Below, one piece after another: positions 2,667 to 20,568 of a DNA stretch of 46,143 nucleotides. The position numbers and the translations under genes are program-made. How positions within the stretch are numbered: position 1 is the first letter of the stretch; the number at the start of each line of letters is the position of its first letter. Under the pieces are notes generated by a model. The model was not told where the DNA came from, did not search any database, and worked only from the letters and a program-made list of their open reading frames with translations. Origin of the DNA: an uncultured Verrucomicrobiae bacterium (GTDB lineage: Bacteria > Verrucomicrobiota > Verrucomicrobiia > Limisphaerales > J093); contig CALJWR010000240.1 of the NCBI GenBank assembly GCA_937976685.1, positions 1 through 46,143 of the forward strand. The letters run 5' to 3'.

Positions 2667-2835
2667 CAAGAATCCCGCCTCGCGGGAGCGGGATCATTGC
2701 GGGGAACGGGGGCCCGCGCAAGCACGGCCATCTGGAAAGAATTCGTTGGCCAAACGGATCGGGTTCAAACGACTTAACGGTTGTGGTTGCATTTCCGGCG
2801 ATGATTGACAACCCTCAAGGAGTCGGTTGCGTTTA

Positions 2836-5800
2836 ATGGATTCATCCGCACAGGTTGAGTTGGTGAGACGTTGCCAGCGCGGTGACAGCGCGGCGTGGGA
2901 AGAATTGGTTTCCGCCTTCTACGCCGAAGTGGGTCGTTTCATCTTTCTTCTGAATCCGGCCTATGCCGAAACTGAAGTGGAAGAAGTGGCGGCCGGTGTG
3001 TTCTTGGATTCGGTCCGGGCGGTGGCTTTCTTCGGCGGCCGAAATCCCGCGCGCGTTGGCTTGTTCTATGCCGCCCTGCGGAAAGCAGCCACCCATCATC
3101 CGCGGCGGGAAAGCAGGGTTCAGAATCCTCCGCAGCCAGCCGGTGGCGGGAACCCGAACGGGCGGTCCGGCCCCCCAGCCCATCTCGCGCTGTTTCTCGC
3201 CTTGGACCATCTCGGCGGACCCTGCCGGGATTTGATCGTCCTCCGATACTTTGGAAATTTGGAGTTGGCCGACCTGGCTCCCGAGTTCGAGGTGAGCGAG
3301 GCGACGCTCGCCATCAGAATTGCCAAGTGTCTCGGAACCTTGGGCGGACTGATGGCGTTGGAGGCCCCGGGCGGCGACCGGCAGGCTGCGGAGGAGGCCG
3401 AGGATGGGGCCTCCGCAGAACTGATTACTGCGGCGCTTCTGAGTTACCGCGAGTGGCGCCTTGGGCAACTGCCGCCAAGTCTCCAGCCTCCGGATTCCCT
3501 GCTCCCCCAAATTCGCGCGGCGCTTACCCGCTCGCCCGAAGCGCGGTCGCGCGTCGAGCTGCGCCGGGCGGCCCGGTTCGTTAAACCCGACATCGTGGCC
3601 AAGGCCATCGGTGCTGCCGCCGGCGTTGTCACCGTCGCCACAGGTATCGCGTTGGTCGCCAGCAGGACTGGGCGGGATGCCGGCGCGGGCGGAGGCTCGG
3701 CCCACGACAACCGGATGACGGGACTTGGCCTCAGCACGATAACGCCTCCCGGTCAGGAAACGAGCTTGAACCGCGGGACCGAGCGCGAGTTCGAGGAGTT
3801 TGTCAGCCGGCTGCTGCCGGTGAATCCCCTCCCTAGTCCGGCGCCGATTGCGGCCGGGGCTTCGACGGTCAACACCAGCGCACCGGAGCCGACGGAACCT
3901 TCTAGCGCTGGTGCCAGCTTGACCAGCCCATCCCCCTCTGCACCGACGGACGCGAAGCTGCAAGTCGCCAAGGACCCGTCTCGCAGCGCGGAAGCACCGT
4001 TGTCCAACAGTTCAGCAGCTACCCCAACGCTGACGACGGGCCGGGTAACCTCGAACGGCGACCCGACGGCGCCATCCGGAAGCGAGGCTTCTGGATTGAC
4101 CGTGACGGCATCCGGAGGTGCCGGCTCCAGCCAGCCACCGTGGACCGCCGAACAGGCGGAGGGGATGGCGCCCGCGTGGATGTTACGGGGATCCGGACCA
4201 GTCGCGCGTGCAGCGATGGAACTGCGGACGTTTGCCCATTACGGTGCCACCCCGCTGCTGGAAAATGTGCCGGCGACTTTTGGACGGGCTCTGAATTCTC
4301 CAGCGTTTCCGTTCGGTCAATCCGACGCCCAAGTGGCAGGGGGGGCGACCAACGTCCCCGCCGTCCCGAGCGCTCCCCGGAAGCCGGAGCCAATGCCCCT
4401 TTCCGCGGGGGACCAGCTTGCTGCCACCAAGGCGGAACCGGCCACCGGACCGGTTGGCGACTCGCTGGCCGCCGCCGTGGACGGAGTGGTCTCAGCGGCT
4501 GGCAGGCAACCGGATTCCGGCGGTTCCCCGGCCGTGGGAACCGGGGTTGCGGAGTTCTCAAATCAGACGGACTGGACGGTAGAAGTCGTCGCTGCGAGGC
4601 CCAGCGCCGGGGCTGCGGAGGTAGCGCCTCCAGAATTGACTGCGGCCTCCTCGGCGGCCACCGCAGCGGCGGTCAGCTCGATTGGGGAAGCGGCCCAAAG
4701 TGGCGACTCGGGATTGGCGTCTTCGCAAGCGAGGACCGACGTGGAGATTGCCCGCCAGCCGCTTGCGCCGAAGACCGACCGGAACGTGGAGACCCCGGAG
4801 CAGCTCGCAGCGACCGCGGCAGCCGAGTCCAACCTGCCCCAGGAGAACTCGCTCGTGGACGACTCGGTTCCCAAGACAGCGCCTCCTGATTCGATTGCGA
4901 CTGCAGTGGAACCGGTCCGGCGGCAGGAAGCGTCATCGCAGGCCTTCCAAATGCAGCTAGTCGCGGTCCCGGGCTCGAACAACGGCGGAAAGCGGGAGCA
5001 GAGTACCGACTCAGACGCTTCGCCACTCGCTCGTGCCGACACCCGTTCAAAGGTGGATTCTGACTCTGAGGTGGCGTTTTCAACTTCGGCTCCAAGTGAG
5101 GCAGAGGCGAAGCCGGCAGGCGGTCTCGCGTCCCGTCCCCTCATCGGGCTGAACCTGAACTTTCGCGTTCACCTGGGCGGCAAGCCGGTGGGTACCGTGG
5201 GTATCAGCGGTTCGAGGCCCTTCGCCGAGCCATCGGTTGCCGATTCACGGAATCCGACTTCCGGCGAAACCGGGGTTTCGGAGGGCGTTACTCTCGCTCC
5301 CGCTTCAGCGCCGAAGCCGATGCCAATCGCAGGCCGGGCGGAGAATTGGAACCGCCGGGTGACCCCGCTGCATCCGTTGGCGGAGCGAACCCACGCGTCG
5401 CGTCCCGCCCCGATCGCCTCGGCCTACCGATCGTCCGATCGCCCTTACCAAGCCAATCAGCCTCCCGTTCTGAGGGTTGCGAGTGTGAGGCCGGCAGCGG
5501 GCACGGCAAACGATTTTCTCTCAACCGATCCCGACGAGAAGGCTTTGGCCGCTGTCAATTCAGGGATGCTGCCGGAAACCGGAAGCGCGTCGGCGAAGTT
5601 CGTGAGGGAGGAGATCACCCGCAGCCTCCGAAGAAATCTCAACTCCCCGCCGATGCCCCAAGTCTTGGAGGAATTCCGCTTTGCTGACCGGGCCGGCCGG
5701 TTGGTGCTTCTTGACAGCGATGGGTCGGAGTTCCCGGTGGTATCAGAGTCAGGAGAGGAAGCGTTTGCCTCCCTCGCGTCGTTGGCGCGCACGCTTCGGA

Positions 5801-6027
5801 CGTTTGGCCTGCCGCTGCGGTTCTCGGCATCCGGCCTCAGCCTTTCCACCGGTGAAATCGTGACTTTTGAGGGCTGGGTGGAGCCGGAGGACGATTCGGT
5901 CTCCGAAGTTCCGCGCACCGCCAGCGAAGGCGGCCCCGAGGTTCTGGCGGCGGCACAGGTTCGCGGCGAGGTCCAAGTCGGCGCCCGGCAGCGCTTTCCG
6001 ATTAGTGCCACGAGCGGCCGGGATTGA
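2836..6027 (+). CDS. ECF sigma-70-like N-terminal domain fused to a TM segment, a long Ala/Pro/Ser-rich region and a small C-terminal beta domain
   Basis: The N-terminus LVRRCQRGDSAAWEELV...EVEEV is sigma region 2-like and ALDHLGGPCRDLIVLRYFGNL...TLAIRIAKCL is region 4-like. A hydrophobic stretch AIGAAAGVVTVATGIALVA is followed by roughly 600 aa of low complexity. Confidence 0.7.
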   Translation: MDSSAQVELVRRCQRGDSAAWEELVSAFYAEVGRFIFLLNPAYAETEVEEVAAGVFLDSVRAVAFFGGRNPARVGLFYAALRKAATHHPRRESRVQNPPQPAGGGNPNGRSGPPAHLALFLALDHLGGPCRDLIVLRYFGNLELADLAPEFEVSEATLAIRIAKCLGTLGGLMALEAPGGDRQAAEEAEDGASAELITAALLSYREWRLGQLPPSLQPPDSLLPQIRAALTRSPEARSRVELRRAARFVKPDIVAKAIGAAAGVVTVATGIALVASRTGRDAGAGGGSAHDNRMTGLGLSTITPPGQETSLNRGTEREFEEFVSRLLPVNPLPSPAPIAAGASTVNTSAPEPTEPSSAGASLTSPSPSAPTDAKLQVAKDPSRSAEAPLSNSSAATPTLTTGRVTSNGDPTAPSGSEASGLTVTASGGAGSSQPPWTAEQAEGMAPAWMLRGSGPVARAAMELRTFAHYGATPLLENVPATFGRALNSPAFPFGQSDAQVAGGATNVPAVPSAPRKPEPMPLSAGDQLAATKAEPATGPVGDSLAAAVDGVVSAAGRQPDSGGSPAVGTGVAEFSNQTDWTVEVVAARPSAGAAEVAPPELTAASSAATAAAVSSIGEAAQSGDSGLASSQARTDVEIARQPLAPKTDRNVETPEQLAATAAAESNLPQENSLVDDSVPKTAPPDSIATAVEPVRRQEASSQAFQMQLVAVPGSNNGGKREQSTDSDASPLARADTRSKVDSDSEVAFSTSAPSEAEAKPAGGLASRPLIGLNLNFRVHLGGKPVGTVGISGSRPFAEPSVADSRNPTSGETGVSEGVTLAPASAPKPMPIAGRAENWNRRVTPLHPLAERTHASRPAPIASAYRSSDRPYQANQPPVLRVASVRPAAGTANDFLSTDPDEKALAAVNSGMLPETGSASAKFVREEITRSLRRNLNSPPMPQVLEEFRFADRAGRLVLLDSDGSEFPVVSESGEEAFASLASLARTLRTFGLPLRFSASGLSLSTGEIVTFEGWVEPEDDSVSEVPRTASEGGPEVLAAAQVRGEVQVGARQRFPISATSGRD

Positions 6028-6034
6028 GGCCCCG

Positions 6035-6808
6035 TTAACGGGGAGGCGCGGCGCTGGCAACAATCACTTCGACCCGGCGGCTGCGGAGTTGCTCCACTAA
6101 CTCACCGGGCGCTCCCGCGTCGGTGACCACGGCGTGGACTTGCTGGAGGTCGCACACGAAGCCCATCGAGCGGCGCCCGAACTTGGTGTGATCCAGGCAG
6201 TAAATTACCCGCTGGGCAGCCCGCATCATCGCCACTTGAATCTCGATCAGCAAGGCGTGCGAGTTGGTAATTCCGTCCGTGGTGATGCCGCCAGCCCCCA
6301 TCACGGCCACGTCCGCGTGCATCTTCGAGAATGATTCCACGGCCAGCGGCCCCACCAAGACACCCAGCCGCGGATAGAGCACGCCCCCGGACAGCACCAC
6401 CTCGACCTGGCTGGAAGCCGCGTAGAGGTTCGCCACTGGCAGGGAATTGGTGATGATCTGCGGCTTCCGTGACTCCAAGTAACGGGCCGCGTGGTACGGC
6501 GTGGTGCCAGCGTCAATGATCACACTTTGCCCCGCACCAATCAGGTCCGCGCACGCGCGTCCAATCGCCTCCTTTTCGTCGAGCTGATGCGTGTCCCGGG
6601 CGTTAAACACAAACTCGTCCGAACGCGGATTCACCAAACGGGCCCCTCCGTGGGTCCGCCGTACGGACCCACCGCCTTCCAGCGCGGTGAGATCGCGGCG
6701 GACGGTGGACTGAGAAACTCCCAACTGGTTGGCCAGCTCCTCCAAGGAGGCGAATTCCACCTTTTGAAGGTATTCCTCGATTCGAGCTTGGCGTTCTTCG
6801 GCCTGCAC
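6035..6808 (-). CDS. DeoR/GlpR family transcriptional regulator (PVM locus regulator)
   Basis: HTH LANQLGVSQSTVRRDL, RTHGGA, and sensor-domain motifs IDAGTT and ITNSL; divergent from the BMC operon, as in PVM loci. Confidence 0.95.
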   Translation of the reverse strand: MQAEERQARIEEYLQKVEFASLEELANQLGVSQSTVRRDLTALEGGGSVRRTHGGARLVNPRSDEFVFNARDTHQLDEKEAIGRACADLIGAGQSVIIDAGTTPYHAARYLESRKPQIITNSLPVANLYAASSQVEVVLSGGVLYPRLGVLVGPLAVESFSKMHADVAVMGAGGITTDGITNSHALLIEIQVAMMRAAQRVIYCLDHTKFGRRSMGFVCDLQQVHAVVTDAGAPGELVEQLRSRRVEVIVASAAPPR

Positions 6809-6820
6809 GTTGGCAAATTG

Positions 6821-6860
6821 TTGGAAGATATTGAAAGATTATGCAAGAAATTTCTTGACG
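6821..6860. promoter_or_regulatory. Candidate DeoR operator / divergent promoter region
   Basis: AT-rich island with three tandem 10-bp units (TTGGAAGATA, TTGAAAGATT, ATGCAAGAAA) and a perfect 14-bp palindrome CAAGAAATTTCTTG (6844-6857) that overlaps TTGACG (6855-6860). Confidence 0.55.
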
Positions 6861-6894
6861 CAGCCAGCGGCCTATGGTCATTTGTCATCCAGAA

Positions 6895-7572
6895 ATGACT
6901 CCTCCCGGATCATCTCTGCCCCGTGCCGTGGTCGAACATCTGGTTCGGCAACTCGTGTACGAGCGTTTGGGAAAGCCGCTGCCCCGCGTGGCTTCGGCAC
7001 CGAACCCTCTGGTTGTCAACGTCAGCGCGCGCCATTGCCACCTCACCCAGGCGGCGGTGGAGGCGTTGTTTGGAAAGGGGCATCAATTAGGCGTCCACAA
7101 ATGGCTCTACCAGGACGGCCAGTTCGCCGCCAAGGAGACCGTGACGTTGATTGGTCCCCGGAGCCGCGTGATTTCGAATCTGCGAATTCTGGGTCCCTGC
7201 CGCAGCTTAAACCAGGTGGAACTCGCCTACACCGATTCCATTGCTCTGGGGTTCGAGATTCCGCTGAGGATTTCGGGTGACATCAAGGGCACGCCCGGCT
7301 GCATGTTGATGGGGCCGGCCGGTTTTTTTGAGATGAAGGAAGGCGTGATCCGGGCCTTGCGGCATGTTCACATGCATCCGGAGGACGCCGCCTTTTACGG
7401 AGTGAAAGCCGGTGACGCGATGAAACTGCGCATTGGCGGTCCCTGCGCCCTCACGCTGGAGCGCATGCTCTGCCGGGTGGACCCGAGCTTCAAACTGGAA
7501 GTCCACGTTGACACCGACGAGGGCAACGCCTGCAACTTGCAGCCGAACACCCCTTGCGAACTGATCAAATGA
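6895..7572 (+). CDS. pduL: PduL-type phosphate acyltransferase with N-terminal encapsulation peptide
   Basis: Motifs VSARHCHL, LYQDGQFAAKETV, ILGPCR, ALRHVHM and HVDTDEGNA; N-terminal amphipathic helix RAVVEHLVRQLVYERLG. ATG 6895 preferred as start. Confidence 0.95.
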   Translation: MTPPGSSLPRAVVEHLVRQLVYERLGKPLPRVASAPNPLVVNVSARHCHLTQAAVEALFGKGHQLGVHKWLYQDGQFAAKETVTLIGPRSRVISNLRILGPCRSLNQVELAYTDSIALGFEIPLRISGDIKGTPGCMLMGPAGFFEMKEGVIRALRHVHMHPEDAAFYGVKAGDAMKLRIGGPCALTLERMLCRVDPSFKLEVHVDTDEGNACNLQPNTPCELIK

Positions 7573-7600
7573 GAAACTGATTTCTCCTCCGTAGCGACTG

Positions 7601-7628
7601 ACTCCAAACTCCCAACTCCTGACACTTA
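7601..7628 (+). repeat. Short tandem heptamer repeat in BMC intergenic region
   Basis: ACTCCAA ACTCCCA ACTCCTG ACACTTA directly before the first BMC-H ATG. Confidence 0.5.
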
Positions 7629-7918
7629 TGAGCGAAGCACTCGGCATGATCGAAACCAAAGGCTACGTCGGCGCTGTTGAAGCCAGCGACGCGATGGTCA
7701 AGGCGGCCAACGTAACCCTCGTCAAAACCATCCCCATCGGCGGCGGTCTGATCACCGTCCTCGCCAAAGGGGACGTCGGCAGCGTCAAGGCGGCCGTAGA
7801 TGCCGGCTCGAAAGCGGCCGCGAAGGTGGGCGAACTCATCAGTTCGCACATTATCGCGCGCCCGCATGAGGACCTGCTCAAGTCGTTCCTGGGCGAATCC
7901 GCGCCAGCGAAGAAGTAG
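7628..7918 (+). CDS. BMC-H hexameric shell protein
   Basis: ALGMIETKG...DAMVKAANV...GDVGSVKAAVDAG...HIIARPH. Confidence 0.97.
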   Translation: MSEALGMIETKGYVGAVEASDAMVKAANVTLVKTIPIGGGLITVLAKGDVGSVKAAVDAGSKAAAKVGELISSHIIARPHEDLLKSFLGESAPAKK

Positions 7919-7957
7919 CGGCGACCGCAACCTCGACTCTCATCCCTCTCAAACTCT

Positions 7958-8236
7958 ATGGCACAACAAGCGATTGGCATGATCGAATGCAAGGGTCTGT
8001 GCGCGCTGCTCGAAGCCAGCGATGCCGCCCTCAAAGCCGCGAACGTCACCCTCGTCGGCTGGGAAAAGATTGGCAGCGGTTACGTGACGTCCTTCTTCCG
8101 CGGCGATGTGGCTGCGGTCAAGGCGGCCACCGACGCCGGCGCGGCGGCGGCGGCCCAAGTGGGGCAGGTCATCAGCGTACAAGTCATTCCCCGGCCACAC
8201 GAAGGTCTGAGCGCCCTCGGGAAGTGGCTGCAATAA
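7958..8236 (+). CDS. BMC-H hexameric shell protein
   Basis: AIGMIECKG...DAALKAANV...KIGSG...[13 protein letters not shown]...VIPRPH. Confidence 0.97.
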
Positions 8237-8330
8237 CCGAGCGTGCCAGCCGGCAGCGGGAGTTCAACGGATTTCGACCGCACGGTCCCCGCCGACTTCG
8301 AATGCTGGCGCCAGACATTGACTCAGCCCC

Positions 8331-9515
8331 TTGAAGATCCTCGTCGCCAACATCGGCTCCACTTCGCTGAAGTGGCGGCTGTTTGACTTCGCCAACGGCG
8401 GCGAAGCGATGCTGCACAAAGGCGGTTTCGAGCGGGTCAGCGACTATGCGGCTGCCATCGAGGATTGTCTGTCAGAGCTCAAACAAGCCGGAGTTCTGTC
8501 AAACGAGGCCGAGTTGGCCGGGGTTGGTTTCAAGACCGTCATTGCCAGGGACGTGACCGGTTGCGTCCGGTTGACGGAGGGCGTCCTGCGCGCGATGGAG
8601 GCCTACAACGGTCTCGCCCCGGCGCACAATCCACCGTACATCGCGGGCATTCGGCAATTCGCCCGGCGGATGCCGGCGACGCCGTTGGTGGGCCTCTTTG
8701 AGACCGCATTCTATCAGTGGGCGCCCGAGCCGGCGAAACGGTACGCGGTGCCCGTCTCGTGGCACGACCTCGGTGTGCGCCGCTGGGGTTTCCACGGTGC
8801 CAGCCACAAATTCATCGCCGAGCGCAGCGCCGAATTGCTCGGCCGGCCCGACGTGGCGCAGCGGGTGCAGAATCTTTATCGGGACGGGGGTGCCTCGCCG
8901 GTCAACTCTCCTGCGCTTCGCGTGATTTCGTGCCACCTGGGAGGCAGTTCCTCGGTGACGGGGATCCTGAACGGCGTGGCCCTCGGCAACAGCCTTGGCA
9001 TGAGCCCGCAATCGGGATTGCCGCACAACAATCGCGTCGGCGATCTGGACGCCTTTGCCCTCGGCTACGTGATGCGTTCGACCGGCCTGTCCCTCGATGA
9101 GGCGGAGCGCCTTCTCAGCAAAGAGGCGGGCCTGAAGGGATTGAGCGGTGGTTACGCCGACCTGCGCGATCTTCAGGCGCAGATCGCCGCGGGCAACCAC
9201 CGCGCCCGGCTTGCGGTGGACTTTCTCGCGCATGAGGCGCGGCGCTGGATCGGATCGTATTACCTCCAACTGAACGGACTGGACGCGCTCGTGTTCACGG
9301 CGGGCATGGGGGAAAACGAACCGGAGATCCGGTCGCTCATCACCGCCAACCTGGATCAACTGGGCATCCTGCTCGATCCCGCCAAGAACGCGACGGCCCG
9401 GGCCCGGGAGGCCGACATCAGCGCACCGGATTCCCGGGTCAAGGTGTGGGTCATTCCCACCAACGAAGAACTGGTCGTGGCGCGCGAAGTGCGACGCCTC
9501 CTGGAGGCGCAGTAA
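8331..9515 (+). CDS. ackA: Acetate/propionate kinase (TTG start)
   Basis: Motifs ILVANIGSTSLK, LAPAHNP, RRWGFHGASH, CHLGGSSS, VFTAGMGEN and IPTNEE. Confidence 0.95.
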   Translation: MKILVANIGSTSLKWRLFDFANGGEAMLHKGGFERVSDYAAAIEDCLSELKQAGVLSNEAELAGVGFKTVIARDVTGCVRLTEGVLRAMEAYNGLAPAHNPPYIAGIRQFARRMPATPLVGLFETAFYQWAPEPAKRYAVPVSWHDLGVRRWGFHGASHKFIAERSAELLGRPDVAQRVQNLYRDGGASPVNSPALRVISCHLGGSSSVTGILNGVALGNSLGMSPQSGLPHNNRVGDLDAFALGYVMRSTGLSLDEAERLLSKEAGLKGLSGGYADLRDLQAQIAAGNHRARLAVDFLAHEARRWIGSYYLQLNGLDALVFTAGMGENEPEIRSLITANLDQLGILLDPAKNATARAREADISAPDSRVKVWVIPTNEELVVAREVRRLLEAQ

Positions 9516-9519
9516 TCCC

Positions 9520-10236
9520 ATGCGATCGCTCCGTCATCTCTTTGAGAACAACCGGGCCTGGTCGGAGGACCTCCGGCGGCGCGATCCCCAATTCTTCGCG
9601 CGGCTGACGCGGCAGCAAAAACCGCAATACCTCTGGATCGGTTGCTCGGACAGCCGCGTGCCGGCCAACGAGATTGTCGGGCTGCTTCCCGGGGAGATCT
9701 TTGTACACCGGAATGTCGCCAACGTCGTGGTGCATACCGACCTCAACTGTCTGTCCGTGTTGCAGTACGCGGTGGACGTTCTGGGCGTGCGCGACGTGAT
9801 CGTCTGCGGACACTACGGTTGTGGCGGCGTGCTCTCGGCCTTGCGGGGAGACCGTTTGGGCCTGGCGAGCAACTGGCTGCGCCACGTCCAGGACGTCTAT
9901 CGGAAGCACCAAGCTCGCATTGACGGACTGGGCGGCGAGTCAGCGCGCTGCAACCGGCTCTGCGAGCTCAACGTGGTCGAGCAGGTCATGAACGTGTGCC
10001 AAACCACGGTGGTGGCGGAAGCGTGGGGCCGCGGTCAGCGCCTCGCGGTGCATGGCTGGATTTACGGCCTGCATGATGGCCTGCTGCGCGATCTCGGACT
10101 CTGTGTCACCGGCCCGGAGCAAATGGCTGCGGCCCTCGCGGCCGCACTGGCTCTCATCGGTGATTCCCCCGAAAAGATCTCACCCCGAGCCGGCCCCCCG
10201 GGCCACCCATTCTTGTCAACGACCTTAGCCCGTTAA
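9520..10236 (+). CDS. can: Beta-class carbonic anhydrase (Can/YadF-like)
   Basis: Zn-ligand motifs WIGCSDSRVP and VCGHYGCGG, plus FVHRNVAN, LCELNV and VHGWIY. Confidence 0.96.
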   Translation: MRSLRHLFENNRAWSEDLRRRDPQFFARLTRQQKPQYLWIGCSDSRVPANEIVGLLPGEIFVHRNVANVVVHTDLNCLSVLQYAVDVLGVRDVIVCGHYGCGGVLSALRGDRLGLASNWLRHVQDVYRKHQARIDGLGGESARCNRLCELNVVEQVMNVCQTTVVAEAWGRGQRLAVHGWIYGLHDGLLRDLGLCVTGPEQMAAALAAALALIGDSPEKISPRAGPPGHPFLSTTLAR

Positions 10237-10255
10237 CCTCATCCCAAAAAACATT

Positions 10256-10537
10256 ATGCCTCAAGCCATTGGAATGCTCGAAACCCGCGGCCTCGTCGCC
10301 CTGGTGGAAGGAACCGACGCCATGCTGAAAGCCGCGAACGTGGAACTCGCCGGCCCGATGACCCAGGTCGGCAACGCACTGGTCACCGCGGTCGTGGTGG
10401 GCGATGTCGCCGCCGTGAAAGCCGCCGTGGACGCCGGCGCCCAAGCCGTAAAGTCCATCAGCGGTGAGGTGGTCAGCGTTCACGTCATCGCCCGACCGCA
10501 CGCTGATGTTGAAGCGGTGCTGCCGAAGAAAAAGTAG
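10256..10537 (+). CDS. BMC-H hexameric shell protein
   Basis: AIGMLETRG...DAMLKAANV...[13 protein letters not shown]...HVIARPH. Confidence 0.97.
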   Translation: MPQAIGMLETRGLVALVEGTDAMLKAANVELAGPMTQVGNALVTAVVVGDVAAVKAAVDAGAQAVKSISGEVVSVHVIARPHADVEAVLPKKK

Positions 10538-10621
10538 GCGGACGGCGGAAGCCAGACGCCTGACCGTGGCCGCTGGGGCACCGTTCCAGACCTTGGCTTC
10601 TGAACCCTGACTTCTCCCGCC

Positions 10622-10939
10622 ATGTTCCTCGCCAAAGTCGAAGGTTCGGTCGTCGCGACAAAGAAGGACCCGGGCATGACCGGCCGCAAGCTGCTTCTGC
10701 TCCGCCCCATGCTCGTGGACGAGAAGGATCCGGCCAGGTTCCGCCCGGGGGCGAACACGATCGTCGCCGTGGACAGCGTGGGCGCCGGCGAAGGCGAACT
10801 GGTCCTGTTCTGCCAGGGGAGCTCGGCACGACTCGCGCCGGGACTCAAGGACTGCCCCGTGGACGCCGTGGTGATCGGCATTGTGGACACCGTGGATGTC
10901 CTCGGTCGGCAGGTTTTCAACGCCCGGACCCAAGCCTGA
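10622..10939 (+). CDS. BMC-P (EutN/CcmL) pentameric vertex protein
   Basis: MFLAKVEGSVVATKK...VAVDSVGAGEGELVL...GSSAR...DAVVIGIVD. Confidence 0.96.
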   Translation: MFLAKVEGSVVATKKDPGMTGRKLLLLRPMLVDEKDPARFRPGANTIVAVDSVGAGEGELVLFCQGSSARLAPGLKDCPVDAVVIGIVDTVDVLGRQVFNARTQA

Positions 10940-11010
10940 TGGCACGCTGACTCCTGGCCACTCGTCGAACCGCTACGCCGCATCTGGAACCCCCAACTCC
11001 CCCTCCCCGC

Positions 11011-12504
11011 ATGAGCACATCTCTCCCGGTCAACGAAGCCCTCATCCGTGACGTCGTCAGCGAAGTTCTCAGCCGCCTGGGCAAGGGCGCTCCCCCAGCC
11101 GCGTCGCCCGCGGTCAACCCCGCCTGCGGTTGTCCGACTGGCGCGAAGCCAGCCGCAGCACCGCCCCGCGGCACTTTTGGGGTTTTTCAGAACGCCGATG
11201 AGGCGTGCGCCGCGGCGCATGCGGCCTATCTGCAGCTTTCCGAAAAGGGGGTCGCCGGGCGGGTCAAGGTGGTGCAGATCGTCAAGGATCTCTGCTTCGC
11301 CCACGCCAAGGAGTGGGGTCGGATCGAACTGGAGGAAACGAAGATCGGCCGGCTGGACCACAAGATTGAGAAGCTCCTCGGGCAGCGAGGCATTCCGGGC
11401 GTGGAGTTCCTGAATCCCTACGGTCTCAGTGGCGACCACGGCATCACGCTCGAGGAGTACGCCCCGTTCGGTGTGATCGGCGCGGTGACGCCGAGCACGC
11501 ATTCAATTCCGACGATGGCCTGCAACATCATCAGCATGGTCGCCGCAGGCAATGCGATTGTCTTCAACGCGCATCCCGGAGCCTACAAGTGCGCGGTCAT
11601 GGCGGCGCGCGTCTTCAATGAGGCCATCCATCGCGAGCTGGGCATCGAGAACCTCGCCTGCATTGTGGATCCGCCAACCCTCGACTCCTTCAACGCCATC
11701 GCGAAAAACGAGCACGTCCGGCTCCTCTGCGTGACGGGCGGGCCGGGCGTCGTGAAGGCTGCCATGGCCAGTGGCAAGCGCGCCATCTGCGCGGGGCCGG
11801 GCAACCCTCCCGTGCTGGTGGACGGAACCAGTTGCCTTGCTAACGCGGCGCGCTGCGTCGTCCTAGGCGCCGCCTACGACAACAATCTGCTTTGCATCGG
11901 CGAGAAGCAGGTCTTCGTGTTGGAACCGTACTTCGACAAGTTCACGGCGGAGCTTGAGAAGGCAGGTGGCTATCGCCTCACGGACGCCCAGGTCGAACGG
12001 CTGACCAAGGCGGCGTTCGTGATTCCGCCGGGCACCGGCGCGGGCTGCGGTCATCCGGTGGTGAATCGCGATCTCGTGGGACGCGACCCCGAGGTGCTCG
12101 CCCGGGCGGCGGGGGCGAGCATCCCCGCCGGCACGCAACTGCTCTTCGCCGAAACACCCCCCGATCACCTGTTCGTGGACGAGGAGCAGATGATGCCGTT
12201 TCTGCCCATCGTGCGTGTCAAGACGGTCGAGGAGGGAATTGCGCACGCCAAACGGTCAGAGCGGGGCTACAAACACTCGGCCATGATTCACTCGCACGAC
12301 GTGGCGAACATGACGGCGATGGCCAGGGCCCTTGAGACCACGCTCTTCGTGAAGAACGGCGCCTGCGTGGCAGGCCTTGGCCATGGCGGCGAGGGCTATG
12401 CCAACTTCAGCATCGCCACGACCACCGGCGAGGGCATCTGCAACCCGCGCACCTTCACGCGCGTTCGCCGCTGCGTGATGGTGGACAAGCTGAGGATCTT
12501 CTGA
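11011..12504 (+). CDS. CoA-acylating aldehyde dehydrogenase (EutE/PduP-like) with N-terminal encapsulation peptide
   Basis: Motifs PFGVIGAVTPST, VTGGPGVV, AGPGNPP, catalytic DNNLLCIGEK, EQMMP and TTTGEG; N-terminal helix NEALIRDVVSEVLSRLG. Confidence 0.96.
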   Translation: MSTSLPVNEALIRDVVSEVLSRLGKGAPPAASPAVNPACGCPTGAKPAAAPPRGTFGVFQNADEACAAAHAAYLQLSEKGVAGRVKVVQIVKDLCFAHAKEWGRIELEETKIGRLDHKIEKLLGQRGIPGVEFLNPYGLSGDHGITLEEYAPFGVIGAVTPSTHSIPTMACNIISMVAAGNAIVFNAHPGAYKCAVMAARVFNEAIHRELGIENLACIVDPPTLDSFNAIAKNEHVRLLCVTGGPGVVKAAMASGKRAICAGPGNPPVLVDGTSCLANAARCVVLGAAYDNNLLCIGEKQVFVLEPYFDKFTAELEKAGGYRLTDAQVERLTKAAFVIPPGTGAGCGHPVVNRDLVGRDPEVLARAAGASIPAGTQLLFAETPPDHLFVDEEQMMPFLPIVRVKTVEEGIAHAKRSERGYKHSAMIHSHDVANMTAMARALETTLFVKNGACVAGLGHGGEGYANFSIATTTGEGICNPRTFTRVRRCVMVDKLRIF

Positions 12505-12654
12505 TGCGCGCACACGGTCCTTGGTTGGCGGTCCCCCGTCGGCCGCGGAAGACAACCCGCGGCGGCCTCGCCGGAGCTCCAGCCGGGAAGCTCCCGCGAC
12601 TGGCTGACGAAACCACCCGCCAGGAACGCGGACCCCAGAGCAACCTGTCAACCC

Positions 12655-12963
12655 ATGCTCCTCGCCCGTGTTGAAGGTTCGGTGATCGCCACCCGGAAGC
12701 ATCCCAGCTACGAGGGCTGGCGGCTGTTGATCTGTCAGCCGATCGCTGCTTCTGGTGAGCCCGAAGGAACGCCCCAGATCGCGATTGATCCCCACGGCGC
12801 CGGCCTGCACGAACGCGTCATCATCTCGTCCGACGGCATGGCCGCGCGTCTGGCGGTGGGCGATCCGAAAAGCCCGGCCCGCTGGATGATCATCGGGTTA
12901 GTGGATGAGCCCGAGTCGCTCGCCGCCGCTGTCCCGCAGACGTCAAGGAGTCCTGCAGCATGA
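12655..12963 (+). CDS. BMC-P (EutN/CcmL) vertex protein
   Basis: MLLARVEGSVIATRKHPS...IAIDPHGAG...ISSDG..AR...SPARWMIIGLVD. Confidence 0.95.
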   Translation: MLLARVEGSVIATRKHPSYEGWRLLICQPIAASGEPEGTPQIAIDPHGAGLHERVIISSDGMAARLAVGDPKSPARWMIIGLVDEPESLAAAVPQTSRSPAA

Positions 12964-13262
12964 GACTTGGCACCGTCATCGGGCGGGTGACGCTCAGCAA
13001 GACGATCCCTCCCTTCAAGGGGGGGCGCTGGCTGGTGATCAGTCCCTTCACGCGACAACATTTTCAGCATCGGCGCGAACCGCCCGTGGGCTTGAGTCGC
13101 GATCCTTCCTTGGTGGCTTACGACAGTCTCGGTGGCGGCGTGGGCGATACCGTCGGCTTCAGCGAGGGACGCGAGGCGGCCATGCCCTTTGACCAGCCGA
13201 CGCCCGTGGACGCGATCACGGTGGCGATCATTGACGACGTGTTCTATTCACCCCAGACCTGA
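12960..13262 (+). CDS. BMC-P (EutN/CcmL) vertex protein
   Basis: MRLGTVIGRVTLSK...AYDSLGGGVGD...SEGREAAMPF...PVDA..AIID; ATGA overlap with the previous gene. Confidence 0.93.
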   Translation: MRLGTVIGRVTLSKTIPPFKGGRWLVISPFTRQHFQHRREPPVGLSRDPSLVAYDSLGGGVGDTVGFSEGREAAMPFDQPTPVDAITVAIIDDVFYSPQT

Positions 13263-13293
13263 AGGCCGTGGCTCACGGCTCCATGCCTGACCT

Positions 13294-14361
13294 ATGAAGA
13301 AAGTCCTCAGTCAACGTGACGTGGAAGAGATGCTCCGTCAGGGAGCGGATCTCACCGCCATCCCAGCGGACACCATTCTCACACCGTCCGCCCGCGACCT
13401 GCTCCGCGACGTGCTGGAAAACGTCCGCACTCCGTCCAGCCTTACGACTCCGACCAGGGTCGCCGTCGCGGCCGCCAGTTCGACGCAGCCGCCGGCGAAG
13501 CCTCTGAACTCAAAGTCGCCCAAGGCCGAACTGGAGGCCTTCTTCCACTCGGCTCACGCCCTCGATCTCAAGCAGCAAATCTGCGAGATGGGCCGCCGTC
13601 TGTGGCAGCGTGCGTATGTGGATGGCAACGGCGGCAACATGGCCATCCGCGTTGGCGAAGACATCGCCCTTTGTACCCCGACGCTGGTCAGCAAAGGCTC
13701 GCTCAAGCTCGAAGACATGTGCCTCGTGGACTTCGAGGGGAATCAGTTGCTCGGCATCAAGAAGCGCACCAGCGAGATCCTGATGCACCTGCAAATCATG
13801 AAGCGGCAGCCCAAAGCCATCGCCACGTGCCACTGCCATCCGCCCTACGCCACGGGCTTCGCGGTGGCCGGCATCGTGCCCCCGACGTGCATGCTGCCGG
13901 AGTACGAGGTCTTTTGCGCGGTGGCCGTCGCACCGTACCGGACGCCCGGCACGCCGGAGATGGGCAAACTCGTGGCCGACCTCGTGGACCAGCACAACAC
14001 CATCCTCATGGCCAACCACGGTGTCGTCACGTGGAGCCACAACAACATCGAGGAGGCCTACTGGCGGATGGAAATCATCGAGGCGTACTGCCGCACCTTG
14101 ATGGTCGCGGCCCAGCTCGGCGTGAAGCCCAACACATTCTCGCCCCAGCAGCTTCAGGATCTGCTCAAGATCAAGCAGAGCCTCGGCTACGTGGACCCGC
14201 GTTACGGGCTGAAGGAATGCGAACTTTGCGACAATGACGAGTGGCGCCCGGGGGTCACCTGCCAGGTCCCGGCCCAATCCGAGACCACGACCGGCTACGA
14301 CGCCGAGGCGGAAGCGGTTGTCCAGGCCGTGACCGATCAGATCATGGCGCAGCTCAAGTGA
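13294..14361 (+). CDS. Class II aldolase/adducin family (fuculose/rhamnulose-1-P aldolase-like PVM signature enzyme)
   Basis: Motifs GNGGN, TPTLVSKG, TSEILMH, HCHPPYAT and LMANHGV; N-terminal extension; C-terminal helix EAEAVVQAVTDQIMAQLK. Confidence 0.93.
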   Translation: MKKVLSQRDVEEMLRQGADLTAIPADTILTPSARDLLRDVLENVRTPSSLTTPTRVAVAAASSTQPPAKPLNSKSPKAELEAFFHSAHALDLKQQICEMGRRLWQRAYVDGNGGNMAIRVGEDIALCTPTLVSKGSLKLEDMCLVDFEGNQLLGIKKRTSEILMHLQIMKRQPKAIATCHCHPPYATGFAVAGIVPPTCMLPEYEVFCAVAVAPYRTPGTPEMGKLVADLVDQHNTILMANHGVVTWSHNNIEEAYWRMEIIEAYCRTLMVAAQLGVKPNTFSPQQLQDLLKIKQSLGYVDPRYGLKECELCDNDEWRPGVTCQVPAQSETTTGYDAEAEAVVQAVTDQIMAQLK

Positions 14362-14413
14362 GCCTCGCGTCGCTCCAGTTCCGTCCCTGTTGCTGCTTGA
14401 TCCCTCCTTGCCC

Positions 14414-15340
14414 ATGAAAGTCACAATCATCGGTGGCGGCGGCCGCGTCGGCTCCTGCGCCGCCTTCGCCCTTCAGTGCGGCGGCGTGGTCGCCGAAATC
14501 CAGTTGATGGACGCCAACCAGGCGGCCGCCGAAGGCGAGGCGCTCGATCTGCTGCACGGCGCGGCATTCACGGCCGATCAACGCCTGTACGCGGGCGACT
14601 ACGCGCGGGCGGCCGACAGCGACCTGTTCCTCATCACGGCCGGCCTGCGGCGCAAACCCGACGAGTCCAGGCTCGACCTCATCAACCGTAACGTCGCGCT
14701 CTTCACCCAGATCCTCGACGCGATCAAGGCGGCCGGTTTTCGCAGGGACGCTCACGTGTTCGTCGTGTCAAACCCGGTGGACATTCTCACCCAGCTCGCC
14801 GTGGGGCGACTGGGTCTGCCTTGGTCGCAGGTCTATGGCTTGGGCACCATGCTGGACAGCGCCCGGTTCAGCTCCCTGATCGCGGACGAATTCAAGCTGG
14901 CCCCCACCCAGGTCAAAGCCCTCATCCTGGGCGAACACGGCGATTCGATGGTGCCCATCTGGTCCAGCGCCACGGTCAATGGCCTGCCGCTGGCGGGCCT
15001 GCCGCAGTTCACGCCGGGTTTTCAGAACGCGGTCTTCGAACGGACCAAGGGCAGCGGCGCCGAGGTGATCAAGCGCAAGGGCGGTGCGGGCTGGGCGGTG
15101 GCCGTCGCCATCCGGGACGTGATCCACGCCGTGGCGTTGAACCAGCGGCGGTTGCTGCCCGTGTCCTCCCTGGTGCAGGGCGCGTACGGCATTCGCAACG
15201 TTTGTCTCAGTGTGCCGTCGGTCGTGGGACGCGCCGGCGTCGAGAAGCACGTCGAGATCAAACTCTGGCCGAAGGAGATTACCGGCCTGCAGAACTCGGC
15301 GCGGGCCCTGGAGGACACCCTGGCCAAGGTCAGGGCGTAA
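14414..15340 (+). CDS. ldh: L-lactate/malate dehydrogenase family (PVM LDH)
   Basis: Motifs IIGGGGRVG, GEALDLLHG, ITAGLRRKPDESRLDL, VVSNPVD, LDSARF and LGEHGDS; ATG 14414. Confidence 0.92.
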   Translation: MKVTIIGGGGRVGSCAAFALQCGGVVAEIQLMDANQAAAEGEALDLLHGAAFTADQRLYAGDYARAADSDLFLITAGLRRKPDESRLDLINRNVALFTQILDAIKAAGFRRDAHVFVVSNPVDILTQLAVGRLGLPWSQVYGLGTMLDSARFSSLIADEFKLAPTQVKALILGEHGDSMVPIWSSATVNGLPLAGLPQFTPGFQNAVFERTKGSGAEVIKRKGGAGWAVAVAIRDVIHAVALNQRRLLPVSSLVQGAYGIRNVCLSVPSVVGRAGVEKHVEIKLWPKEITGLQNSARALEDTLAKVRA

Positions 15341-15343
15341 CCC

Positions 15344-16627
15344 GTGAAATCGCTCGACGCCAAGCTGGCTGAGATCAGGGCCAACCCCCGCTCGCGCGCC
15401 TTCATCATCGCGGACGCCAAAGACGCAGACATGGCCTTCGGCGTGAAGGCCCCCGGGCCCCGGTCCTATTTATCAGCGCAGGGCGCGCGGCCGGCGCAGT
15501 TTTCGCCCGAGGTGTGGACGCGCGAGGAGTTCGGCTACCGCAACCTGCCCGAGTTCCTCGACATCATCCGCGAAGTGACCCGCCAGGGCTTGGTGGACAT
15601 CATGCTCATGTCCGCCTACGTCAACGACCTCCTCACGATCAAGGAGGGCCTCTTCAAGGACTCTCACGTCACGCCTGCGGCCCGCGCCAACGACACCACG
15701 GACGTGTGGGCCGCCCGCCACGGGAGCTACACCAAGGAACCGGCGCAGCCTTTCCGGAGCGCGAGCATTGACCAGATCCAATGCGGGCGCGTGGAGTGCG
15801 ACCGGACGACCGAGGAGTTTCCCGGGGCCAACCTCGGCCTGTACAGCGTGACCTGGGTCAACGATCTCGAACAGGACCGCCGCACGCTGCTCGAGTACAA
15901 AGCCTTCCGCGATGAGGCCGAGCGAAAACGGTTCCGCCATTTCCTCGAAGTCTTCGATCCGAACGTGGACAGCGGCATTCCGCCGGAAAAACTCGGCGAG
16001 TTCATCAACGACCAGATCCTCCGCACGCTCGCCGGTGTGCCCGAGACCGGACGGCCGCTCTTTCTCAAGATCGTCTATCACGGTCCGCGCGCGATGGAGG
16101 AGCTCTGCCAGTACGACCCAAACATGGTCGTCGGCATTCTGGGCGGCGGGGCGGGCACCACGTACGATGCCTTCAAGCTCATCCACGAGGCGCAAAAGTA
16201 CGGCGCGCGGGTGGCGTTGTTCGGGCGCAAGATCAACCACGCCGAGCACCAGCTTGCGTTCATCGAGATGCTGCGGCTGATCACGGATGGCCACGTCACG
16301 CCGGAAGAGGCCGTACGTGCCTACCACGGTGTGCTTCAAGCCAAGGGCATCCAGCCGCATCGCCCGCTCGACGAGGACTTGGAACTCACCGACCAAGCCA
16401 TGAGCTACGGCGGTGGAGGGACGCGGACCACGGTGCAAATCCGGGCCAATCCCCTCGTCGGGCCGGCGCGACCGACGGTACCCAAAAGCGCAAGTGCGTC
16501 CGCGAAGGCGGAATTGACCGCACCCGTCTGGCCCACCCGGCCCGACGGCTCGCCTGACTTCGCCGCGATGAATTCCGCCCAGCGTGCGGCGTTCGATGCC
16601 TGGCGCCTCAAGCGGCGGTTCGGTTGA
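15344..16627 (+). CDS. TIM-barrel aldolase/decarboxylase-like protein (resembles OiaC 3-oxo-isoapionate decarboxylase)
   Basis: Starts 3 nt after the ldh stop and has strongly GC3-biased codons. Motifs FIIADAKDADM, RANDTTD, LGLYSVT, FLKIVY, GILGGGAGTT and GARVALFGRKIN. The family call rests on recollection of the motif series, not on a search. Confidence 0.6.
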   Translation: MKSLDAKLAEIRANPRSRAFIIADAKDADMAFGVKAPGPRSYLSAQGARPAQFSPEVWTREEFGYRNLPEFLDIIREVTRQGLVDIMLMSAYVNDLLTIKEGLFKDSHVTPAARANDTTDVWAARHGSYTKEPAQPFRSASIDQIQCGRVECDRTTEEFPGANLGLYSVTWVNDLEQDRRTLLEYKAFRDEAERKRFRHFLEVFDPNVDSGIPPEKLGEFINDQILRTLAGVPETGRPLFLKIVYHGPRAMEELCQYDPNMVVGILGGGAGTTYDAFKLIHEAQKYGARVALFGRKINHAEHQLAFIEMLRLITDGHVTPEEAVRAYHGVLQAKGIQPHRPLDEDLELTDQAMSYGGGGTRTTVQIRANPLVGPARPTVPKSASASAKAELTAPVWPTRPDGSPDFAAMNSAQRAAFDAWRLKRRFG

Positions 16628-16677
16628 ATCCCGGAAGTCAATCGGGCCAGCCCGCGGCCGGGGCAATCGCTGCCCGA

Positions 16678-16875
16678 TCAACCCAGTGAGCGGCCTTGAG
16701 CCGCCCACCCTCGGCGCATCAAGCCCAGCAAGTGCGCCAAGGCATCCTCATAGGCCCGTCCTTTGGCGGCAGCGAGCTGCCGGGCGCGTTTGTCGAGTTG
16801 GGCCGCCATCCCGGCGCATTTCGCCGCCGGACAGCCCATCACCGCGAGCAGTTGCGCGAGTTCGGCAAGGTCCAT
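16678..16875 (-). CDS. Small helical hypothetical protein
   Basis: ATG start, protein-like amphipathic sequence (MAAQLDKRARQLA...YEDALAHLLGLM), co-oriented with and downstream of the cyclophilins. Confidence 0.6.
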   Translation of the reverse strand: MDLAELAQLLAVMGCPAAKCAGMAAQLDKRARQLAAAKGRAYEDALAHLLGLMRRGWAAQGRSLG

Positions 16876-16925
16876 CTAACGAAGCATCCCGGGTGAGGCA
16901 CCCCGCCCGCGCCGGCAAGCGTCGC

Positions 16926-17426
16926 TTACCCCGCCTGCTCGGCCGGGACGATCTTCACGCTGACCAGCGTCTGTTTGGTGGTCGGACGATCGCCGGGTTG
17001 GGTGGGTGTCGTGGCGATCTTGTCGAGCACGTCGTCGCCCTTGATCAACCGGCCAAACGCCGTGTACTGACGATCCAGGAAACGGGCGTCGGCGTGGCAG
17101 ATGAAGAACTGGCTGCCGGCGGAATCGGGGTCCTGCGCACGGGCCATCGAGAGGACCCCGCGGACGTGCGGCCGGTCGTTGAACTCGGCCTTGATCTGAT
17201 AGTTCGGCCCGCCGGTGCCCCAGCGACGCTGCTGGGAATCGTCCCTAGTCAGCGGGTCGCCTCCCTGGATCATGAAACCCTTGATGACCCGGTGGAAGCA
17301 GGTGCCGTCGTAAAAGCCCTGCCGGGCCAGCTTCTTGAAGTTCTCGACGTGGCCGGGCGCGACGTCCGGCCAGAACTCGAGGACCATTTCGCCGGCACTG
17401 GTGGTGAGGATGGCGACTTCGTTCAT
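16926..17426 (-). CDS. Cyclophilin-type peptidyl-prolyl isomerase (cytoplasmic)
   Basis: Motifs FYDGTCFHRVIKGFMIQGGDP, LSMAR, SAGSQFFI and YTAFG. Confidence 0.97.
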   Translation of the reverse strand: MNEVAILTTSAGEMVLEFWPDVAPGHVENFKKLARQGFYDGTCFHRVIKGFMIQGGDPLTRDDSQQRRWGTGGPNYQIKAEFNDRPHVRGVLSMARAQDPDSAGSQFFICHADARFLDRQYTAFGRLIKGDDVLDKIATTPTQPGDRPTTKQTLVSVKIVPAEQAG

Positions 17427-17445
17427 GGGATGGATGGCTGGGTAA

Positions 17446-19355: not shown

Positions 19356-19476
19356 AGGCGCGATCATGGACGAGCCCGCGCCCGGCGGCAATCCCGGCCT
19401 CCGCCCGACGAGCCAGCGACGTCCGGGACAGGCGACACTTGACGCTCGGCACCTCGTTCGCAACGGTCACGGCCGC

Positions 19477-20567
<1,091 letters not shown>

Positions 20568-20568
<1 letters not shown>

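Follow-up and report, generated by a model that had tools for sequence, protein, structure and literature searches.

A Can-type β-carbonic anhydrase gene recurs in metabolosome loci of one verrucomicrobial order

Introduction

Metabolosomes of the Planctomycetes–Verrucomicrobia type (PVM) are encoded by bacterial microcompartment (BMC) loci with a characteristic gene set, namely a DeoR regulator, the phosphotransacylase PduL, three BMC-H shell proteins, the acetate kinase gene ackA, three BMC-P vertex proteins, an aldehyde dehydrogenase (AldDH), a class II aldolase and a lactate dehydrogenase (LDH)-like protein (sections covered of PMC4207490, PMC8217296 supplement file 4 and PMC8857213). PMC8217296 catalogues 285 PVM loci. 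In the pathway outlined in the sections covered of PMC8857213 and PMC4207490, fuculose or rhamnulose phosphate gives dihydroxyacetone phosphate (DHAP) and lactaldehyde, and the route continues through lactyl-CoA and lactyl phosphate to lactate, or leads to propanediol. Here we describe a locus with the same gene set on contig CALJWR010000240.1 of an uncultured Verrucomicrobiae bacterium (assembly GCA_937976685.1); the whole stretch analyzed, 46,143 nucleotides (nt), is referred to as the window. Unlike the PVM loci described in the covered sections of PMC4207490, PMC8217296 and PMC8857213, this locus includes a gene for a β-carbonic anhydrase (CA), located between ackA and the third BMC-H gene (BMC-H3).

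Catalogues of BMC loci treat CA as a hallmark of carboxysomes, and in the literature searched it was mentioned only in that context: in the covered sections of PMC4207490, PMC8217296 and PMC8857213, "carbonic anhydrase" or PF00484 occurs for carboxysomes only. A full-text search of running text (as opposed to picture diagrams and the founding paper, Erbilgin et al. 2014) that included PMC4207490, PMC8217296 with its supplementary text and PMC8857213 did not turn up a PF00484-type CA for PVM loci. As far as this search extends, a CA in a PVM locus is a recurrent and undescribed variant of a known locus type.

Described enzymes of three kinds are the closest points of comparison. Escherichia coli Can (YadF) and Haemophilus influenzae HICA are "type II" β-CAs, which share with the window's CA the same equivalog family, the zinc ligands, residues W39, R64 and Y182, and a terminal helix. 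CynT is a β-CA encoded in a catabolic operon, the cyanate operon of E. coli, where it is thought to balance CO2 and bicarbonate while the pathway runs, the cyanase reaction being one that consumes bicarbonate. CynT thus provides a model for a soluble, operon-coupled CA, although the PVM pathway, unlike cyanase, has no known bicarbonate step. CcaA of β-carboxysomes is likewise a BMC-encoded β-CA with a C-terminal tail beyond the fold, and CcaA tails bind the scaffold CcmM (PMC8580825, sections covered). Unlike in the CcaA setting, the compartment considered here is catabolic and no RuBisCO, CcmM or other carboxysome gene was found near it.

Results

The open reading frame (ORF) at 9520–10236 on the forward strand encodes a 238-amino acid (aa) protein that matches Pfam Pro_CA (5e-52, residues 37–188) and scores 282.5 bits, above the cut-off of 251, with NF007756 "carbonate dehydratase", an NCBIfam equivalog; the nearest protein cluster bears the title "MAG: carbonate dehydratase [Verrucomicrobia bacterium]". 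A preliminary description of the window had read all zinc ligands as intact. The ligands and the Asp–Arg dyad (C42, D44, R46, H98 and C101) were indeed invariant in 121 aligned homologs and also in a 26-row alignment, and W39, R64 and Y182, which we take to be the non-catalytic regulatory bicarbonate pocket (Trp39, Arg64 and Tyr181 in HICA numbering), were invariant in the same alignments. An AlphaFold model of the protein (mean predicted local distance difference test score, pLDDT, 86.9) superposed on E. coli Can (1i6o_A) with a template modelling (TM) score of 0.94 and a root-mean-square deviation (rmsd) of 1.7 Å over 213 columns, and the sequence match to Can was 1e-78. For Can and HICA taken together, identity was 52–53%, TM 0.93–0.94 and rmsd 1.6–1.7 Å over 208–213 columns. 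The CA differs from both in that its terminal helix is followed by 24 additional disordered residues, and in its location in a microcompartment operon. On the strength of the alignments and the model, the ORF is an intact, genuine Can-type β-CA, and its activity is predicted.

The surrounding locus (6035–15340; Table 1) contains, by Pfam matches, the aldolase, AldDH, PduL, ackA, DeoR regulator, BMC-H genes and BMC-P triplet that characterize a PVM-type metabolosome. It does not qualify as a carboxysome locus, since no Pfam match to RuBisCO families, CsoS2 or CcmM/CcmN was found in the 50 window ORFs scanned, which bears out an earlier statement that RuBisCO is lacking from the window; RuBisCO_large was not found in the host assembly either (80% complete). 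The position reported for the CA gene was confirmed: it starts after a gap of 4 nt (TCCC) from the end of ackA at 9515, and a gap of 19 nt separates its end from the start of BMC-H3 at 10256. No sigma-70-like promoter and no terminator-like site on the + strand was found in 5800–16000. Because the gaps are short and no such site was found, co-transcription of the CA gene with the PVM operon is likely.

We then asked how widely this arrangement occurs, using 401 genomes of the host's verrucomicrobial order, a group of bacteria from soil and water; of these genomes, 154 match this CA and 249 have a BMC-H3 ortholog. The thirteen proteins of the window's locus served as queries against the flanks (≤5 kb on each side) of 139 Can-type matches, a set that excludes an unpublished genome, a split gene, a fragment and weak matches of ~32–36% identity. 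Fourteen of the 139 genes lie between ackA and BMC-H3, in families f15 (eight cases), f6, f22, f57, f64, f67 and f76, and three lie directly after the aldolase gene (f21, f28 and f69), while the other 122 had no PVM gene in the fetched flank, some of the contigs being short. With the window included, 18 of the 249 shell-gene genomes (7%) carry an in-locus CA, 15 at the ackA/BMC-H position and three after the aldolase. A second genome of the host genus, G002, adds a further ackA-position case, making 16. The closest relatives of the window's CA are themselves in PVM loci (97% identity in G002; 70–72% in G099, of family f76). In a species-wide genome scan, three of the best 80 loci were PVM-linked, all on contigs already encountered, and the other 77 were not. 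Among the matches listed in a metagenome scan, one of 80 loci was PVM-linked (L262, of the sister-clade type described below), the relatives found there being at most 68% identical.

Phylogenetic analysis was performed on 107 CAs, after near-identical non-linked rows had been thinned at 85% identity and rows shorter than 195 aa dropped. The window's CA grouped with those of G002 and G099 (98/92), and the other 13 ackA-position CAs formed a second clade (100/100), hereafter the sister clade, which also holds the CA of G098. The two ackA-position clades are adjacent, split by a 62/55 branch only, and a single ackA-position clade was not rejected by the approximately unbiased (AU) test (p 0.97, with a constrained tree that bettered the unconstrained quick one). 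These trees are therefore compatible with one origin of the ackA-position CAs as well as with two. The after-aldolase CAs fall at three separate places in the tree, one of them among the non-linked CAs of its own family (quick tree, 99% Shimodaira–Hasegawa-like approximate likelihood ratio test, SH-aLRT). When location labels were placed on the tree, six changes were needed, against a mean of 18 for shuffled labels, and well-supported branches force at least three; judged from the tree, Can genes have therefore joined PVM loci repeatedly.

Two irregularities were seen within the sister clade. The CA of G098 (L030, G098:C219, 1651–2412 (-)) is of the sister-clade type with a degenerate basic tail and lies on a 6.4-kb contig without a nearby PVM gene, so that it is either a displaced copy or part of a mis-binned or chimeric contig. 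Near-identical CAs (branch lengths 0.00–0.05) occur across family codes f15, f6, f57 and f67 (L024, L029, L039, L041, L042, L045 and L047), which points either to a locus transferred recently or to assemblies whose families were assigned inconsistently.

The history of ackA was found to follow that of the CA. With the ackA of G099, a CA carrier, the window's copy shares 81% identity, and with those of 11 genomes of the host's own family 68–73%, while H1, H2, PduL, BMC-P3 and the aldolase of the window are closer to the host family than to G099. In the ackA tree the window and G099 are sisters (90/84) and belong to a starred set of six rows (98/97) that excludes the main family clade, whereas PduL lies in the starred family clade (95/94), as does the aldolase (100/99). 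Since ackA groups with a distant carrier while PduL and the aldolase group with the family, the ackA–CA pair looks like a cassette that has been exchanged between PVM loci.

The ackA/BMC-H3 junction is variable even within the host genus. In G001 (L357, G001:C38, 2549–2726), whose ackA is 88% identical to that of the window, ackA is followed by ~175 nt and BMC-H3, with no CA. Homology between the window and G001 resumes at 10217, within the last codons of the CA tail (87.6% over 323 nt), and one frame of the G001 spacer ends in a peptide and stop that match the last nine codons of the CA. Upstream of 10217, DNA similarity between the tail and the G001 spacer was not above that of shuffled sequences (483 of 1000 shuffles reach it), and matches between the CA interior and the spacer were likewise not above shuffles. 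Directly behind the ackA stop, the G001 spacer opens with a stretch in which 18 of 21 nt equal the start of the CA gene, a score also attained by 24 of 300 shuffles. The case for reading the spacer as a scar left by deletion of a CA gene is weak, because clear homology is limited to the last ~20–27 nt of the ORF onward. Loss from G001 is nevertheless the simpler reading of the sequences, because the tail is also shared with the much more distant G099. Whether it was lost or never gained in G001, the CA is, on this comparison, dispensable in the genus.

Beyond the genus, the ackA/BMC-H3 spacer measured 6–57 nt in 16 of 20 CA-less loci (L162–L181), 151–206 nt in three and 505 nt in one, the last of which (L179) may hold a small ORF. 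Low-identity contigs in two metagenome runs, from other community members, also join ackA to BMC-H3 without a CA. In eight of the 16 ackA-position loci, a ~129-aa gene of the glyoxalase/bleomycin-resistance superfamily (Pfam PF00903, 7.6e-11) lies between the CA and BMC-H3 genes; it is absent from the window. This gene was considered as a methylmalonyl-CoA epimerase, which would have offered a link to a carboxylase, and was rejected, as it gave only generic Glyoxalase and weak bleomycin-binding matches in Pfam and NCBIfam. Two ackA genes of the sample have an unusual structure: that of G044 was matched in two pieces (L141, G044:C51, 1760–2975) and may be frameshifted, and in G108 (L353, G108:C169; the region equals L175 374–508) an extra fragment corresponding to ackA residues 1–45 lies upstream of the full gene.

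The preliminary description had raised the possibility that the C-terminal hydrophobic helix, with the Pro-rich tail that follows it, acts as an encapsulation signal, while noting that ordinary Can proteins also end in a helix. An encapsulation peptide is described as a predicted amphipathic α-helix of 15–20 residues joined to the enzyme domain by a poorly conserved linker (PMC4594438, sections covered). Such peptides are present in this operon at the N-termini of PduL and AldDH and at the aldolase's C-terminus, positions that match those described in the covered sections of PMC4594438 and PMC8217296 supplement file 4. In the CA, by contrast, there is neither an amphipathic helix held apart by a linker nor any helix in the tail. 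Residues 199–214 form a confident helix in the model (pLDDT 96, then 84, by block) that is contiguous with the fold, aligns with the terminal helix in the solved structures of Can-type enzymes (HICA 3–212; 6yjn 8–218) and is included in the superposition with Can/HICA chains (213–214 aligned columns). It contains no charged residues, the best 14-residue hydrophobic moment at the CA C-terminus is 0.44 (0.70 and 0.61 for the PduL and AldDH peptides), and the Pro-rich, linker-like stretch comes after the helix, not before it. The helix is present in all homologs, including CAs not linked to BMC genes. Because it is part of the fold and is found in BMC-unlinked CAs, the hydrophobic helix is, by alignment and model, the normal Can terminal helix and not an encapsulation peptide.

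The translation agrees with a Pro-rich tail after this helix. Residues 215–238 (24 aa) contain five prolines, have no counterpart in solved Can/HICA structures and show no secondary structure in the model, the pLDDT falling from 52 to 33. The tail DNA (10165–10233) is 46% C and 19% G, compared with 31% C and 34% G in the CA core, and only 0.17% of 2356 coding windows of 69 nt in the operon are equally G-poor. The earlier remark that it resembles the spacers of the operon was correct: these are likewise C-rich and G-poor, and the ackA/BMC-H3 spacers of 16 CA-less loci have a similar composition (A 36, C 35, G 8, T 21%). Of the 16 CAs at the ackA position, 13 had a tail whose G content lay 5 percentage points or more below that of the core. 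The residues that make up the tail (Pro, Ser, Thr and Lys) are those that C-rich, G-poor DNA encodes. A tail born from spacer-like DNA, on which some selection then acted at the peptide level, would fit both this composition and the substitution data given in the Discussion. A complex prediction with three BMC-H3 chains and CA residues 195–238 (score 0.00; mark, 0.32) weighs on neither side of the question of shell binding.

Some further sequence features of the spacers and the tail were recorded. The operon spacers (7573–14389) are mostly C- or A-rich and G-poor, without an obvious Shine–Dalgarno sequence, and the motif CTCATCCC is shared by the spacers H1/H2 and CA/H3 and by the one between ackA and H3 in G003. 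BMC-H3 (window 10499–10537) ends in DVEAVLPKKK, and the tails of the window's CA clade have S-x-E-K-I-L-P at CA residues 216–222 (SPEKISP in the window); this five-residue likeness of the tail to the C-terminus of a shell protein may be due to chance.

Table 1. Features of the PVM-type locus in the window, and loci of other genomes that carry a glyoxalase-superfamily gene
Feature	Position	Strand	Evidence
DeoR-family regulator, divergent from the operon	6035–6808	-	Pfam DeoRC 1.3e-42, HTH_DeoR 1.5e-17
PduL-type phosphotransacylase; N-terminal amphipathic encapsulation-peptide-like helix, then Pro-rich linker	6874–7572	+	Pfam PTAC 6.4e-70, domain from residue 48; hydrophobic moment 0.70
BMC-H shell protein 1 (H1)	7628–7918	+	Pfam BMC 3e-26
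BMC-H shell protein 2 (H2)	7958–8236	+	Pfam BMC 2.2e-28
ackA, acetate kinase family	8331–9515	+	Pfam Acetate_kinase 9.5e-87; phylogeny tracks CA, not host family
β-CA catalytic core, Can type, residues 1–198	9520–10113	+	Pfam Pro_CA, NF007756, zinc ligands, model
CA C-terminal helix, residues 199–214, normal Can-fold element	10114–10161	+	Model pLDDT 96 then 84; structure alignments
CA Pro-rich tail, residues 215–238, plus stop	10162–10236	+	Predicted disordered; C-rich, G-poor DNA
Spacer CA/BMC-H3, 19 nt, G-free	10237–10255	+	Sequence
BMC-H shell protein 3 (BMC-H3)	10256–10537	+	Pfam BMC 3e-22; orthologs in 249/401 genomes of the order
BMC-P vertex protein 1	10622–10939	+	Pfam EutN_CcmL 1.9e-29
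AldDH; N-terminal encapsulation-peptide-like helix and linker	11011–12504	+	Pfam Aldedh 5.9e-22; hydrophobic moment 0.61
BMC-P vertex proteins 2 and 3	12655–12963 and 12960–13262	+	Pfam EutN_CcmL 2.1e-25 and 1.1e-15
Class II aldolase, PVM signature enzyme; C-terminal helix of encapsulation-peptide type	13294–14361	+	Pfam Aldolase_II 3.7e-41
Lactate/malate dehydrogenase family gene, last of the operon	14390–15340	+	Pfam Ldh_1_N, Ldh_1_C; NCBIfam L-LDH 7.8e-83, below cut-off
Loci with glyoxalase-superfamily gene	L039 (5727–6116), L024, L029, L041, L042, L045, L047, L048	L039 +	Pfam PF00903

The aldolase was also considered as a CO2-releasing decarboxylase. Its best NCBIfam match, 3-oxo-tetronate 4-phosphate decarboxylase, reached 106 bits, well short of the cut-off of 250 and near its FucA matches, and the assignment was rejected. 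Upstream of the operon, a 1066-aa ORF (2827–6027 (+)) matches no Pfam family, and its first ~170 residues weakly resemble extracytoplasmic function (ECF) sigma factors (NCBIfam E 4e-6 and weaker, far below cut-offs). Straight after the operon, two ORFs of 427 and 297 aa (15344–17477 (+)) match no Pfam or NCBIfam family and may be non-genes in high-GC DNA. Approximately 4 kb downstream of the operon are hypD (Pfam 3.4e-154) and a HypE-like gene of the AIR-synthase family (19267–21635 (+)), both of hydrogenase maturation.

Discussion

On balance, we favor the view that the protein is a soluble Can-type CA that serves as an accessory of the PVM operon and is co-expressed with the organelle. The Can-type gene belongs to a gain-and-loss module, which a minority of the PVM loci in a single verrucomicrobial order carry between ackA and BMC-H, and in the host genus it apparently arrived with ackA by recombination between PVM loci. 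The CA would be made whenever the organelle is made and would speed the conversion of CO2 to bicarbonate and back, thereby possibly supplying bicarbonate for carboxylation of three-carbon products (DHAP, lactate/pyruvate), buffering the acid produced by the pathway, or both. Its co-transcription, physiological role and location outside the shell are what we infer. Because the CAs encoded after the aldolase gene (210–223 aa, tail-less in 3/3) have no extension, the benefit of the CA seems not to need the tail, and this favors a soluble, organelle-induced enzyme. In the host genome, a second β-CA gene is directly upstream of an SbtA-type Na+/bicarbonate transporter gene (L002, G000:C9, 486–3210 (-); Pfam Sbt_1 7e-117), which suggests that cytosolic inorganic-carbon handling is a normal theme in this genome. 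The Pro_CA domain of this second enzyme occupies residues 421–570 of the longest ORF, whose start may be later or whose N-terminal part may be unrecognized. The host also has a third, divergent β-CA, and given these other enzymes the operon CA is predicted to be an additional, conditionally expressed one.

Several observations weigh against this view. The PVM pathway described in the covered sections of PMC8857213 and PMC4207490 has no CO2/bicarbonate step, so that a physiological link of the CA to the pathway is conjecture. Each carrier genome gave one Can-type match only when this CA was used as the query, as would be expected for a relocated housekeeping gene. The other points concern the tail. 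All 16 ackA-position CAs have a long tail (233–253 aa in total), while the 120 complete non-linked CAs are 190–236 aa long (median, 214) and only three of them reach 233 aa, one being the displaced clade member of G098. Tail length and residues S216, K219, P222, G228 and T235 are kept in 11 aligned members of the window's clade, down to 69% identity. In the sister clade, dN/dS, the ratio of nonsynonymous to synonymous substitution, was 0.18 for the tail, compared with 0.07 for the core and 0.15 for the helix (seven close members, the pairs being non-independent). Going by these alignments, such conservation is unexpected for a functionless appendage.

The same tail data agree with an alternative that we consider possible, though rather unlikely, in which the CA is true cargo or shell-associated and is targeted non-canonically through its disordered tail, which would act as a short linear motif for binding to a shell protein or to some other cargo. 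The location of the closest relatives in PVM loci is consistent with it, as is the mean pairwise identity in the window's CA clade, which at 49% for the tail is close to the 55% of the helix (83% for the core; 13 sequences, including the ten tail-bearing metagenome proteins P0003–P0012, 70–80% identical). Contigs from four metagenome runs also cover the CA and its tail without indels, and there is a precedent in the γCAL domain of CcmM, which binds the C-terminal tails of CcaA (PMC8580825, sections covered). However, the tail is non-amphipathic, Pro-rich and predicted to be disordered, it is linker-like and placed after the helix instead of between domain and helix, and the scan of 50 window ORFs gave no CcmM-like partner. 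Tails also differ between the clades and within the sister clade, where they are strongly basic (net +5 to +12) with 32% identity and three of them are of unrelated sequence, and within its clade the window's tail has diverged furthest and is the least basic. Furthermore, the three after-aldolase CAs are tail-less, and CAs of family f13 have shorter, basic, K/R/P-rich tails although an ortholog of the PVM shell gene BMC-H3 was found in 0/7 sampled f13 genomes. Of the encapsulation signal proposed earlier, the helix is thus eliminated, and the tail, conserved in the closest relatives, which lie in BMC loci as the proposal would have it, is at most a candidate for that role. In its strict form, with the CA a bona fide metabolosome component held by a disordered C-terminal short linear motif and no amphipathic peptide, we regard the idea as doubtful.

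Also unlikely, in our estimate, is that a housekeeping can gene came to lie in a permissive spot as a passenger, with a tail that is functionless read-through of former intergenic DNA. In composition the tail DNA stands apart from coding DNA and matches the operon spacers, its last ~9 codons with the stop can be aligned to spacer sequence of the CA-less G001, and the junction accepts other insertions, as the glyoxalase-superfamily gene in eight CA-bearing loci illustrates; the dispensability of the CA in the genus and its being the sole Can-type gene of each carrier are likewise as this explanation would have them. Conservation of the tail DNA would then reflect a second job as an unstructured, G-poor leader of the next gene. 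Chance, however, would place a single gene in a ~9-kb locus of a 4–5 Mb genome at a rate that we estimate at 0.2–0.5%, yet 17 of 139 Can genes are in PVM loci, at two positions and from at least three origins. The sister-clade tail has a high proportion of synonymous differences (pS 0.52) and a low proportion of nonsynonymous ones (pN 0.14), which points to a constraint on the peptide and not on the DNA, and the similarity of the tail to the G001 spacer upstream of 10217 does not exceed that of shuffled sequences. The preliminary suggestion of a recent insertion whose tail is captured intergenic DNA accordingly holds in part: gain or loss within the genus, the spacer-like tail and the shared last codons agree with it, while the recurrent placement and the purifying selection on sister-clade tails do not.

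Returning to the soluble accessory enzyme that we favor, the comparison indicates that operons for fucose/rhamnose metabolosomes have on several occasions, and at two positions, taken up an ordinary Can-type CA, that it moves with ackA and that it has apparently been lost within a genus. Its repeated gain, movement with ackA and loss argue for a real but conditional benefit of fast CO2/bicarbonate equilibration while the pathway runs, a benefit that published pathway schemes do not predict. If the CA is merely cytosolic, the finding is a modest point of annotation, namely that some PVM loci carry an accessory CA, in part together with a glyoxalase-superfamily gene, at a variable junction. If instead the CA were a component held by its tail, this would be the first non-carboxysomal microcompartment with a carbonic anhydrase, and the handling of CO2/bicarbonate or protons would be of importance within aldehyde-processing organelles or on their surface. 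A further implication would be that targeting tails can arise from operon spacer DNA, and the locus would offer a natural case for how new cargo signals arise.

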